DNA of 64,000 nt, from assembly GCA_964016885.1 (NCBI GenBank), contig OZ024742.1:87234001-87298000 (forward strand), given 5' to 3'. The notes beneath the pieces were generated by a model. That model was not told the origin of the DNA, ran no database searches, and saw only the letters and a program-made list of their open reading frames with translations. Of the stretch, positions 2,751 to 26,372 are shown in pieces. The position numbers were made by a program, and so were the translations under genes. The stretch's first letter is position 1. Each line of letters opens with the position of its first letter. Source of the DNA: Eledone cirrhosa (taxonomy: Eukaryota).

Positions 2751-3729
2751 AATCAGGAAAGAAGATCGACATGGTGGTTTGCTATACAAAAAAGGTTTTT
2801 AATCTCATTGCTGACAATTGTTTCTCTGAACTGGTAGGTCGAGAGATCGCTATTCGTTTGTTTTCACGTTACTCGATCGCCAATACAAAATTATAACCAG
2901 TCAGTTCTTCGGGGCATGCGAGAATGAAGGGGATATACAGGCATGAAAAGAATATACAGGCTACTATATGAAGTAGTAATGGCATTCAGTTAGAACAATA
3001 ACAACAATTACAACATTGCTAGTAATAAATTATTTGAGGAGACCTTGACATTACATTAGGTGGGCGTATAGTGTATCTAAGATTTCGGCGTGTAAAACTA
3101 GCTGACATGAAGCAGAAGTATAAGGTTGACATGTAAGGAGTGTCGTAGGGTGTGTTATATAAATTTTAAAGATAAGCCGGTGTTTATCAACAATGTAGGT
3201 CAGGTGGCCGTAATGTTCAGTATTTATCTGACCGACGAAGTATTTATCATTGAGTCGAATGTGTGTTGTCTACGTTAGATGAGAATACAGTCTTTCTGTT
3301 CATCTTCAATAACATACATGTATGGGGCAACACTGTCAAAGCTAAATAATGGGCAAGTTAATACAGAGGTTAAGGAGGTAATATATATATATATATATAC
3401 ACACATATATATATATATACACACGCACGTGTACATAGACACATACATACACATCAATATACACTCGTACAAATACATACATACATGCAAAGAGATAAAC
3501 ATGCTGACTGTAATTATGGCAAAAGAAAGGTAAAGTTACATCGTAGTAGTGATTTGAGAGATTCGTGGATTTAGGATCAAGTGATGGCAGCAGCTGGGAA
3601 GGAATAAGTTTATGGGTTGATGAGGTACTTACAGACATTTGTGTGGTATAGAACTGTGAAGGCTAGATTGTACTTAATAAGTATATTTCTGTGGTGATTT
3701 ATGCAGTGTAGTGGGTATCCTGGTTCGAT

Positions 3730-4200
3730 TCACGGAGGTTTGAATCTTATGAATTTAGTGGCAATTCTATGTCTGCAGAAGATAGATCTTTCTAACTTAT
3801 TGTTAAGTAGCCTTTTTACATTTTTGAGGATATACATTAGTTCTAGATCACATAGACCGCAGTGGGACATACCTGTACTATAGGTTTTAGCAGCCGACAA
3901 CTTCGACCAGTTAATACTGTAGTTAGTGTTGTTGTCCTTCAGTTCCCATATTTTTTTGCGAGGGCTGTGGAACCTATAAGTGCAAGATTTTTCATCGAGT
4001 GCCTGTGCACATACCATCTTTTCTTAAAAGAACCCGCGGTGGATCCTATGTAATTCCAGTTGGAGTTATCCGAGTTGACCGTGCACATGTACACTAGGCT
4101 CGAATCGAGACATCTGTTCGCCAATGGGCACCTATCTGGTAGGTGACAGTTACAGTTTGAGGTGCTATTTTGTGCAGCTTCCACACTCCTGTTTAGCACT
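3730..4200 (-). pseudogene. PLE GIY-YIG endonuclease remnant (frameshifted)
   Basis: CNCHLPDRCPL..CLDSSLVYMC..NYIGSTAGSFKKRWYVH..STALAKK/IWELK..CGLCDLE..LNNKLE..CRHR, split over ORFs 3939-4199 and 3730-4017. Confidence 0.85.
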
Positions 4201-4468
4201 CTGTTATAAGTGGATTGTGATATATGCCCATTGGGGTTTTATTGCTGCGCGTTTGTATGCGCTTGCGGTTGTGATACTGTGATGTGTTTATGCTTATAAT
4301 TTGGTGCTACGTTGTGCATAGGTGCGGTTGATTTACTAGATATATTTCTGTGGTTGATCTTGCGTATGTGTGATTATATATTTGCTGCTGTCGAGTATGA
4401 GAGTTTTGTAGTAATTCTATTGTGTATATCCTCTTCATTCTATTGAGTATATCCTCTTCATTCTCGCA

Positions 4469-4576
4469 TGCTCCGAAGAACTGACTTGTTATAATTTTGT
4501 ATTGGCGATCGAGTAATGTGAAAACAAACGAATAGCGATCTCTAGACCTACCAGTTCAGAGAAACAATTGTCAGCA
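4469..4576 (+). ncRNA. Hammerhead-ribozyme-like motif with 60-nt stem II insertion (second copy at 2809-2916, minus)
   Basis: TGCT-CCGAAGA-A-CTGACT(G/T)GT..60 nt..ACCAG(T)TCAG-A-GAAAC-AATT-GTC-AGCA; stems I and II pair and stem III is the minimal palindromic type. Confidence 0.6.
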
Positions 4577-4821
4577 ATGAGATTAAAAACATTTTTTGTA
4601 TAGCAAACCATGACAGTCTTCTTTCCTGATTTATTATTAATCCAAGTGTTTAAAACATAGGAATTACAGCACACCCGCAATATCACTATGAACACGCCTT
4701 GTTGAATCAAACCAAGCCAAGCGTTGATATCATCCACTACCCGGAATACCATAACTGGACTACACCTAAGTGAACTGCATATAACTATTATTTGTTACCC
4801 CGTATATATATATATATATAT

Positions 4822-22765: not shown

Positions 22766-22857
22766 ATTGTTATACTTTGGGAGGGTCACGTTGCCAATAA
22801 GAAGCACACGCACCATGACTTATTGGCAACATGACCCTCCCAAAGTATAACAATATC
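22762..22857. mobile_element. Mini-palindrome made from the 3' tip of the Neptune-like PLE
   Basis: ATTGTTATACTTTGGGAGGGTCA(C/T)GTTGCCAATAA is present in both orientations and matches 58305-58358. Confidence 0.75.
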
Positions 22858-22964
22858 GATTTCAACACACGTTTTCAGATAAATAATTTTGCTAAACAAA
22901 TTCAGAAACGAAATATATATATATATATATATATATATATATATATATATATATATATATATAA

Positions 22965-23280
22965 ACTAATAAAAACAAATTACAGGTTCCTTTTATTGAA
23001 AAAAATCATCATTTTACGATCGTTTCTGGGATATATATGTGTGTGTTGGTAGGTATATCATATTAAAGATCTATGTGAAAAAAAAATTAAAAAATGATCA
23101 GAGGAGATATACGTGAAAGTATATATAAGTGAAGGTATGAATATCTCCTCGGATAATTTGTAATAGTCGTTTACACCAATCTTTAATATGATATACATAT
23201 CAACACACACATATATATTACGGAAACGATCGTAAAATGATGATTTGTTCAATATAAGGAACCTGTTCTTTGTATTTATT
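22965..23280. repeat. Inverted repeat with about 100 bp arms, probable PLE terminus remnant
   Basis: 22965-23070 vs 23178-23280; contains GAAACGATCGTA, which resembles a hammerhead stem III. Confidence 0.55.
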
Positions 23281-23496
23281 TCATTGTTTTTATTACTTTA
23301 TCTTGAATCTGATTCCCTATTATTTTTATCGTTAAATGGTGAATGCATGTTATATTTTCATAATATCTTCTATATTTAGATTACACTGAGTTCTTCATAC
23401 AGATTGGACACTACAGTTTATTTTGGTATATTTATCTACAGACACACACACACACGCATATATATGTATATATATATGTATATATATATATATATA

Positions 23497-26372
23497 GTAA
23501 TAATAAATTTGAAGACTAAAATCCAAAGAGGGCTCGATAAGGATAAATATATATAAAATATATGAGAACCATAGAGCAAATATTTATTAAAATAAAAGAT
23601 TAAAGTTTAAGCAAAGAATCGCTGCTTTCACCCTTAACGGGATCTTCTGAATCTAACAAAGTCAATCTGTAAACGCAGAACTGGATATTTCAAAAAATGT
23701 TGCAACCGGAGGAAGACAGGAAGACGATTGTTTGGTTCGTGGAAACGTTCGCTGGCTAAGAACGGGAAACAACGAATATAATACGTCATTAATAGGAGCG
23801 TTGAAAAGCAATTACGAGCAAAGGCAGAACCACGTTTATGGTTTAAAAGAGGTCGTAGACTAATGTTCTCTTAGGTGGTGCATAGAGACGTTCTCTGGCA
23901 ATGAACGAAAAAACGAAGATACTACGTCATATGTGGAGCGTGGAGAACAATAGCACGCAAAGACAAAACCACGTAAATGGTATAGCAGAAGTCGTAGACT
24001 AAATTCTAACTAGGAGACCGAATGAATCTCCGCTACAGAGTTAAGAACAAAGTAAATAAATACAATACAGAAGTAATAGAAATAAATAAATACAAACACG
24101 CAAACAAATACGTACATACACAAGCATACGCAAAAACTTACCATAGGTAAACAAAACCACGCACATATAAATATGTGTGTGTGTGTAAGCGTGTCTACAA
24201 ATAAATAAATAATTATATAAACGTATATAAATAAATAAATACGTATATAAAAAGCGCACACACATACCTACATGTAAATGCACGAATGTTCGGAGACGTA
24301 AGGCAACCAAAACATGAAGTACACATATACGTACGAACCTGCATACTCACACAGACGCAAAACTCCCGTATACACATAGCCAAACCATATGTACCAGAAA
24401 TATAAAAAAAAATGTATACGCCATAACAATCAAATATACGTACGCGAAGGTATACGTACCTTCACAAAATATACGGATAATATATACTTACCTATGCAAA
24501 TAAGTAAAGGTATAAACAAACATATACTTAGCTCCCACATCGAGACGTAAAATATCCACGTATAGATCGAACTATCCGTTAGCGTATAACGTGGGGCTGT
24601 AATACAGGAAAGTTTTGTGCAATTTATGTTTACAAGCCGAAATTGCCTCAGATTTTTTGTTTAAGATGTGGTCTGTGGCGTAGAGTATTTCCAGGGCCTC
24701 AGCGGCGCAGAGGTCACATTATCTTTTATTTCCGTTATACGATCTAGCCCTAGCTAGGATCTCCCAGTGTAACTTATATTGGGTGTGGTTGTCTTTTAGA
24801 CTCCAGATATAAGCTGAAAGTGACGTCATATTCCTTCTTAGAGGGTAACGAAAAGAATGGGTATGCATGTAAAGACGCTCCTTGAAACTATTGGCGGTTA
24901 ACCCTATGTAGGCCCAACGGGACGTGGGTGTTACAACCTTACATTTGTGGACAGTGTTACTAGAGAGGCATTTCCCGGATAGGGGGCAATCAGCCCGATT
25001 CCTACAGTTAGAGTTAGTACTAACTACAGGGTTGCACGTGTTCCTACGGCTAGGTAGTTTAGCTAAATTTGAAGGGTAACGAAAATTCTTTTCGTTACCC
25101 TCTTAGAAGGAATATGACGTCACTTTCAGCTTATATATGGAGTCTAGAAGACAACCACACCCAATATAAGTTACACTGGGAGATCCTAGCTAGGGCTAGC
25201 TCGTATAACGGAAATAAAAAAACATGTGACCTCTGCGCCGCTGAGGCCCTGGAAATACTCTACGCCACAGACCACATCTTAAACAAAAAAATCTGAGGCA
25301 ATTTCGGCTTGTAAACATAAATTGCACAAAACTTTCCTGTATTACAGCCCCACGTTATACCCTAACGGATAGTTCGATCTATACGTGGATATTTTACGTC
25401 TCGATGTGGGAGCTATGTATATGTTTGTTTATACCTTTACTTATTTGCATAGGTAAGTATATATTATCCGTATGTTTTGTGAAGGTACGTATACCTTCGC
25501 GTACGTATATTTGATTGTTATGGCGTATACATTTTTTTATATTTCTGGTACATATGGTTTGGCTATGTGTATACGGGAGTTTTGCGTCTGTGTGAGTATG
25601 CAGGTTCGTACGTATGTAGGGCGTGCGTATATGTGTACTTCATGTTTTGGTTGACTTACGTCTCCGAACATTCGTGTATTTACATGTAGGTATGTGTGTG
25701 CGCTTGTTATATACGTATTTATTTATTTATATACGTTTATATAATTATTTATTTATTTGTAGACACGCTTACACATACACACATATTTATATGTGCGTGG
25801 TTTTGTTTACCTATGTAAGATTTTGCGTATGATTGTGTCTGTACGTATTTGTTTGCGTGTTTGTATTTATTTATTTCTATTACTTCTGTATTGTATTTAT
25901 TTACTTTATTCTTAACTCTGTAGCGGAGATTCATTCGGTCTCCTAGTTAGAATTTAGTCTACGACTTCTGCTATACCATTTACGTTGTTTTGTCTTTGCG
26001 TGCTATTGTTCTCCACGCTCCACATATGACGTAGTATCTTCGTTTTTTCGTTCATTGCCAGAGAACGTCTCTATGCAACACCTAAGAGAACATTAGTCTA
26101 CGACCTCTTTTATACCATAAACGTGGTTCTGTCTTTGCGCGTAATTGCTTTTCACCGATCCTATTAATGACGTATTATATTCGTTTTTTCCCGTACTTAG
26201 CCAGCGAACGTTTCCACGAACCAAACAATCGTCTTCCTGTCTTCCTCCGGTTGCAACGTTTTTTGAAATATCCAGTTCTGCGTTTACAGATTGACTTTGT
26301 TAGTTTCAGAAGATGCCGTTAAGGGTGAAAGCAGCGATTCTTTGCTTAAACTTTAATCTGTTATTTTAATAA
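23497..26372. mobile_element. PLE family D head-to-head inverted insertion
   Basis: Minus arm 23497-25070 and plus arm 25085-26372 share about 1.27 kb; EN C-terminus TSLSAYIWSLE..CDLCAAE..LNKK; (TA)n flanks. Confidence 0.9.
26302..26352 (+). ncRNA. Compact hammerhead-like motif of PLE family D (copies 18872-18922 plus; 23604-23654 and 16895-16945 minus)
   Basis: Consensus AGTTT-CAGAAGA-T-CCC-gttaa-GGG-T-GAAA-GCA-9 nt-TGC-TT-AAACT. Confidence 0.55.

Follow-up and report, generated by a model that had tools for sequence, protein, structure and literature searches.

Hammerhead motifs with altered cores at the 3′ ends of Hydra-type Penelope-like elements in Eledone cirrhosa

In the Eledone cirrhosa genome (3.0 Gb), we analysed a 64,000-nt stretch of contig OZ024742.1 (positions 87,234,001 to 87,298,000 of the forward strand), which we call the window. 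Between 2.7 and 26.4 kb the window is a patchwork of retroelement ends, 5′-truncated, often inverted and embedded in (TA)n tracts. The motifs that they carry are homologous to type I hammerheads and mark the 3′ ends of Hydra-type Penelope-like elements (PLEs; Table 1). We name the element families B, B2, C (subfamilies C1, C2 and C3), D (with an older subfamily, D2) and F; subfamily C3 is not to be confused with core position C3. In families B, C, D and F, a preliminary description of the window had placed motifs in the hammerhead order of stem I, core, stem II, GAAA, stem III, UH and stem I′. This order can be read in all four, with core position 3 at 4473, 12109, 26307 and 16230, respectively, and the motifs of B, C and D do lie on the sense strand near the element's 3′ end, downstream of the endonuclease. 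A candidate antisense orientation of the D motif was dropped, the antisense instance being an inverted terminal copy. Counting sister families, the window has 13 motif copies of this kind, and two hammerhead motifs of other families occur in it as well. A strict descriptor is passed by one copy of the 13 (B at 4473), private mutations or indels being present in most of the others, and a scan of the window gave two matches against none in each of ten shuffles. The claim that standard tools miss these motifs was borne out: none of the 77 matches from an Rfam covariance-model scan of the window (E up to 10) was a hammerhead. Descriptor and Rfam scans undercount the motifs because of the long stem II domain described below.

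The elements that bear these motifs have the features of the TA-inserting, Hydra-like PLEs that they had been proposed to be. Specifically, family D retains a near-complete frame of 713 amino acids with RWR, DKT and YRDD motifs, a CxCX5C linker and, at the C terminus, a GIY-YIG endonuclease with CxxC before E and CxH after N. Fragments of B contain RWK, DKT and the same cysteine motifs. Family C yielded a reverse transcriptase (RT) fragment with the linker, its endonuclease features being read from partly mutated frames in the window and its N-terminal RT motif region not being recovered. Family F is placed by a single endonuclease fragment that groups with B/B2 (support 1.0) and by terminal-repeat homology, no long F copy having been found. 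Judged by eye, these endonucleases have no CCHH motif, and the elements are inserted in (TA)n; these are the Hydra features given in the clade descriptions of Craig et al. (2021, PMC8557442). An N-terminal endonuclease, a trait of the Naiad PLEs, was looked for and not found in B and D, where the domain follows the RT. Published Hydra references were compared by eye; the tree cited below was built from endonuclease sequences, and several of its rows, being RT-thumb fragments or nested neighbours, were ignored. A Pfam search with three open reading frame (ORF) fragments returned no family.

Window copies are mostly decayed, and family-wide core states were read from 25–30 close genome copies per family, which are best matches and not a random sample. 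Family F has a canonical core (U4 in 44 of 52 copies) with U.U at positions 10.1/11.1. In B, position 4 is C in 33/36 distinct copies and 10.1/11.1 is A.A, while its sister B2 has U9 in 28/31; the B lineage contains several independent core changes. Family D combines A4 (all 14 of the D matches in random genomic blocks) with U.U and a 3-bp stem II, and no alternative letter at this position appeared among the rows listed from contigs of four public sequencing runs. Subfamily D2, which differs from D at position 7 and in both loops, also has A4 (17 of 22 readable copies). C1 and C2 keep U4 but have A8 facing C3, in 41/50 copies (4 unparsed) and 21/26 copies (3 unparsed), respectively, whereas subfamily C3 has a paired U3-A8 in 21/22; family C keeps G10.1-C11.1. 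The stretch from A9 to G12 measures 81 nt in B, 56 nt in C, 13 nt in D and 79 nt in F. A core of the form C3-U4-G5-A6-N7-G8-A9 with a paired 3-8 is therefore present in F and, as U3-A8, in subfamily C3, and is lacking in B (C4), D (A4), C1/C2 (C3.A8) and B2 (U9). The elements G12-A13-A14, A15.1-U16.1 and H17 are in place.

These states revise the preliminary description in several respects. Its core formula, C-N-GA-N-GA, fits B, D and F and fails in C. Its change of U4 to C or A applies to B and D, F being canonical; its U.U or A.A at 10.1/11.1 applies to D, F and B, and its stem II insertions to B, C and F, with none in D. The C3.A8 mismatch of two of the three C subfamilies had been missed. 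The proposal of one divergent hammerhead class does not hold, as each lineage has its own change and most families in the genome are canonical. Two candidate patterns were also rejected here. One relative of B seemed to have a C.A core, but this came from misalignment and the copy is canonical; a pairing of stable stem III with weakened cores was dropped, as stem III is short in B and two canonical families have long ones.

The fold is supported by covariation. B, B2, F and three relatives align over ~170 nt, which makes B and F homologous and not, as first thought, families with little similarity. In a sequence-based alignment of eight natural copies of the B/B2/F set, with the hammerhead stems drawn by hand, 89% of cells pair (28–38% in slid controls) and 8 of 21 pairs are altered on both sides; that number was matched in 2 of 500 shuffles, counts that are not probabilities because the rows are few and related. 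RNAalifold, run unguided, found no helices other than the inner two of the stem II insertion, in which 5 of 10 pairs are compensatory; this indicates that the insertion is a conserved structured domain. The covariation is strongest in the B/B2/F set and weaker in D, which offers only two close subfamilies. In addition, the motif is more conserved than its surroundings. Between the C subfamilies, motif identity is 85/94, 82/97 and 87/97 (85–90%), compared with 288/442, 212/470 and 256/461 (45–65%) in the upstream untranslated region (UTR), figures that are depressed by indels and a few mis-extended copies. In predicted monomer folds, stem III hardly forms in B, B2 and F (0.06 or less), which is typical of dimer-type PLE hammerheads; subfamily C3 is almost wholly hammerhead, and C1 and D have competing folds with a stem I pair probability of 0.3 or less.

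We then looked beyond the window, at 16 arbitrarily placed 50-kb blocks of the genome (800 kb), using a relaxed descriptor that leaves positions 3, 4, 7 and 8 free. The search gave 90 matches, against 5–11 in each of five local dinucleotide shuffles. Although the 3-8 pair was unconstrained, it is Watson-Crick in 84 of the 90 (73 C-G, 11 U-A); position 4 is U in 68, C in 7 and A in 15, the stem II region is at least 50 nt long in 21, and U.U occurs in 39. The matches fall into ~36 clusters, mostly with canonical cores and several with U3-A8. The density in these blocks, about one motif per 9 kb, would correspond to some hundreds of thousands genome-wide. The blocks also contain a family with the C4 core of B and a similar stem I but a 20-nt stem II (for example, R6 at 44920 and R13 at 43204).

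As an outside baseline we took 79 metagenome loci that encode relatives of the D protein. A descriptor match was found at 53 of them, compared with 4–7 after shuffling. The 48 outside matches with a short stem II all have U4 and A9, with C-G at 3-8 in 43, U-A in 4 and U.G in 1; the remaining five are low-scoring and chance-like. U.U at 10.1/11.1 is the top state in 26 of the 53. Neither the fixed core variants nor the long stem II insertions were seen outside this genome in the 79-locus sample, where 26 loci gave no match, in many cases because too little flanking sequence was present. Relaxing the search at 12 loci (10 matchless, 2 with chance-like matches only) yielded one more canonical motif. 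Metagenome assemblies are rich in Hydra-type elements: of 8000 proteins scored, 887 reached E 1e-20 or better, and many of the loci have a hammerhead ~2.3 kb upstream of the ORF end, as expected of paired terminal repeats.

The preliminary description had taken the Hydra clade to have been described without detectable hammerheads. This is incorrect: canonical hammerhead ribozymes are universal in the clade according to Craig et al. (PMC8557442), whose File S2 has many with U on both sides of stem II. The Hydra hammerheads listed there, including Hydra-1_oBim, resemble those described here in lying on the sense strand near the 3′ end, in being type I with a short palindromic stem III and frequent U.U, and in having (TA)n-inserting hosts, and the F core is of this kind. 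The listed Hydra rows, however, are all C3-U4-G8-A9 with a short stem II, and none of the listed motifs, compared by eye, matches B, C, D or F. The fixed C4, A4, C3.A8 and U9 states together with a structured stem II domain of 55–100 nt look new.

Other natural hammerheads provide partial parallels. The minimal PLE hammerheads treated by Cervera and De la Pena (2014, PMC4209133) likewise lie in terminal repeats, are type I with a dimer-type stem III, and show high family diversity and low activity, which is also to be expected here; they include a U3-A8 variant, the pair found in subfamily C3. The text of that paper covered here does not describe an unpaired C3.A8 or changes at positions 4 and 9, and, unlike minimal PLE hammerheads, C and D have a stem III long enough for monomer folding. 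Perreault et al. (2011, PMC3088659) report U.U at 10.1/11.1 and cite U4C as lowering activity in a viroid that remains infectious. U4C, U3-A8 and U10.1-U11.1 are thus known natural states that recur here; in the accounts given there they are rare isolates, whereas in this genome families numbering roughly ten thousand to a hundred thousand copies have them as fixed states, and A4 and C3.A8 are not found in the text of that paper covered here, as distinct from its figures. In the saturation screen of Roberts (2023, PMC9901934), single changes in the CUGA/G8 region gave low activity. In the Anolis Poseidon PLE (Frangieh et al. 2024, PMC11167929), a protein-assisted hammerhead lies near the RT start sites, and disruption of its 3-8 pair does away with cleavage yet still permits insertion in vitro. 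The elements studied here share that location, and two alternative 3′ ends (tail) occur here too; Poseidon, however, belongs to a different clade and has a canonical 3-8 pair, and its cleavage-loss mutants are engineered, whereas the variants here are natural. In the literature covered we found no report of fixed A4, C3.A8 or U9 in PLEs, although a prior description may exist in figures or in Lunse et al. (2017) on small PLE hammerhead variants.

How might these observations be reconciled? On balance we favour a reading in which the type I motifs at Hydra-type PLE 3′ ends have changed in their cores in several high-copy families while keeping their fold, so that cutting would be slow or absent without halting the spread of the elements. 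From the core states we infer the cleavage behaviour. F, with its canonical core and palindromic stem III of 2–3 bp, would resemble other PLE hammerheads in needing dimer formation or the aid of a protein in order to cut; cleavage of B (C4) would be slow; and D (A4), C1/C2 (C3.A8) and B2 (U9) would be strongly impaired. U4A was reportedly inactive in a viroid study. Since most insertions run through the site, they would derive from uncut RNA. What selection likely acts on, therefore, is a folded 3′ domain beside the start of reverse transcription, through protein binding or template presentation, with residual cleavage at most. The core changes are common to subfamilies (C.A in C1 and C2, A4 in D and D2). 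A single origin of the C.A state, from an ancestor with U3-A8, is likely: in the endonuclease tree C1 and C2 group apart from subfamily C3 (support 0.83), which favours a single U-to-C change.

Use of cut RNA as a template should leave some copies whose first base is exactly at the predicted site. In C1, 343 of 18,656 exact 3′ ends have two mismatching bases before the site; 20 of 30 inspected were genuine, which gives ~230, compared with 73 (at −2), 71 (at −4) and 80 (at +2, with a stricter pattern) at control positions. Family D shows no excess, with 189 copies starting at the site and 173 three bases upstream (matches not inspected in context), and no canonical F copy starts there, a count for which there is no control.

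Several points weigh against slow or absent cutting and against the history proposed for C. The roughly threefold C1 excess fits retained cleavage. The paired subfamily C3 has the same ratio, 27 versus 9 (80 raw; likely extra-G copies removed), and the excess is independent of the 3-8 pair; continued cutting by C.A may lie behind it, or it may reflect an effect of a G-run and the stem I edge. Canonical F itself gives zero, so that little can be read from a lack of such copies in D. GAAA, U16.1 and G5-A6 are unchanged across all variant families, as expected if chemistry still counts. Support for the root of the C lineage is only moderate, and subfamily C3 falls near C2 when a UTR tree is rooted at its midpoint. 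Finally, the mutational data on core changes come from other hammerheads.

The 5′ ends of copies show two further patterns. In the random blocks, D copies tend to break off where stem I begins on its 5′ side: among the 24 that reach past position 3, 10 start 4–8 nt upstream of it, where 0.65 would be expected. Some of these are arms of one insertion, and many D2 copies break there too; RT stalling, fold-back of complementary DNA or a length effect are possible causes. Stem I as a general 5′ breakpoint hotspot was rejected, as the cluster is confined to D, did not appear in the B and C copies retrieved, and in F is confounded by microsatellite matches. For C, all 86 alignment rows in the blocks (three references, with double counting) start 32–68 nt downstream of position 3, inside stem II, and none includes the 5′ half of the core. 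They are mostly short inverted pairs with differing centres, and a competing hairpin lies over GAAA just downstream.

An alternative that we consider somewhat unlikely is that all variants are working ribozymes, compensated by protein, dimers or tertiary contacts of the long stem II, with an efficiency in vivo close to that of canonical PLE hammerheads. Across subfamilies, all stems and the remainder of the core are indeed conserved, the C1 excess of about threefold equals that of the paired subfamily C3, and there are precedents in the protein-assisted PLE hammerhead (PMC11167929) and in the U4C variant, which works in vivo in a viroid (PMC3088659). However, the C excess coincides with a run of four G and the stem I edge, and RT could halt at either one on uncut RNA. 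In D there is no excess, nor a long insertion that could compensate, and 0 of the 48 outside Hydra-type hammerheads depart from U4 and A9, none having C.A. The narrower proposal that A4 or C3.A8 hammerheads cut efficiently in vivo, through a retrotransposon protein or the covarying stem II domain, seems to us doubtful.

Less probable again is that the variant motifs are dead relics whose core changes were fixed by a bottleneck of a few master elements, conservation arising from overlapping sequence signals (the RT start or a promoter in the pseudo-long terminal repeat). The several independent core changes in the B lineage and the poorly populated predicted monomer folds of D and C1 are consistent with this, as are the cleavage-independent insertion seen in vitro in the Poseidon assays (PMC11167929) and the Naiads, which by the account in PMC8557442 thrive without hammerheads. 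The compensatory changes in stem I, stem II and the inner helices, in contrast, show selection on pairing and not on letters alone, although part of that signal may predate the core changes. That the motifs are chance matches in AT-rich repeats is in effect refuted, despite the empty Rfam result and weak single-copy folding z-scores (−2.1 to +1.0), by observed counts about ten times the shuffled ones, the covariation of the stems, a fixed placement relative to the ORF, and the same motif after the Hydra-type ORFs of other organisms.

Table 1. Hammerhead motifs and associated element remnants in the window
Feature	Positions	Strand
Family B motif, inverted terminal copy; C4, A.A at 10.1/11.1, 81-nt structured stem II region, short palindromic stem III	4469..4576	+
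Family B motif, element 3′ end	2809..2916	-
Sister family B2 motif, decayed copy (family state U9, 28/31)	4875..4981	-
C1 motif; C3.A8 mismatch, G10.1-C11.1, long stem II, stable stem III; copy with an extra base and one further change	12098..12203	+
C1 motif, inverted, decayed; outer limits approximate	10048..10141	-
C2 motif (C3.A8), private 6-nt deletion	22185..22272	+
C2 motif, inverted, decayed; outer limits approximate	19083..19162	-
Family D motif; A4, U.U, 3-bp stem II; minority base of this copy disrupts first stem II pair	26302..26352	+
Family D motif	23604..23654	-
Family D motif, inverted, decayed	18872..18922	+
Family D motif, decayed	16895..16945	-
Family F motif; canonical core, U.U, 79-nt structured stem II region; copy altered in stem III	16225..16331	+
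Family F motif, second copy; position 3 mutated	15112..15218	+
Canonical hammerhead of an additional family absent from the preliminary description; relatives in random genomic blocks	22332..22390	-
B element, broken Hydra-type endonuclease region	3733..4163	-
C1 element, broken Hydra-type endonuclease region; inverted partner 9256-9708 (-)	10513..10926	+
C2 element, broken Hydra-type endonuclease region	20804..21234	+
D element remnant: RT thumb, linker, endonuclease; upper limit approximate	17914..18800	-
Inverted D pair, endonuclease remnants	24608..25347	24608-25009 minus, 25069-25347 plus

Other elements share the window with these families. A different Penelope-like element lies at 6722-7960 (+), with a decayed hammerhead of a canonical family at 7889-7929 and a related element at ~55805-57973. 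Another TA-flanked terminal family (5209-5312, 12421-12776 and 15798-15902) has the GAAA-stem III half only as a remnant and no recognisable 5′ core in these copies. Further along, 27638-47900 contains broken frames from two or more kinds of non-long-terminal-repeat retrotransposon, one of which includes a tandem duplication of 1.3 kb (36251-38875).

The question on which these elements bear is whether the PLE hammerhead serves in RNA processing or is a mere passenger. The genome offers matched natural pairs at high copy number: subfamily C3 (U3-A8) against C1/C2 (C.A), and the canonical F against B (C4) and B2 (U9). From such pairs it could emerge that families can succeed with no cleavage or, alternatively, that core states regarded as crippling remain functional. 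Were A4 or C3.A8 hammerheads to prove efficient, the known catalytic core would be wider, and there would be a protein-dependent subclass of hammerheads with tens of thousands of genomic copies.

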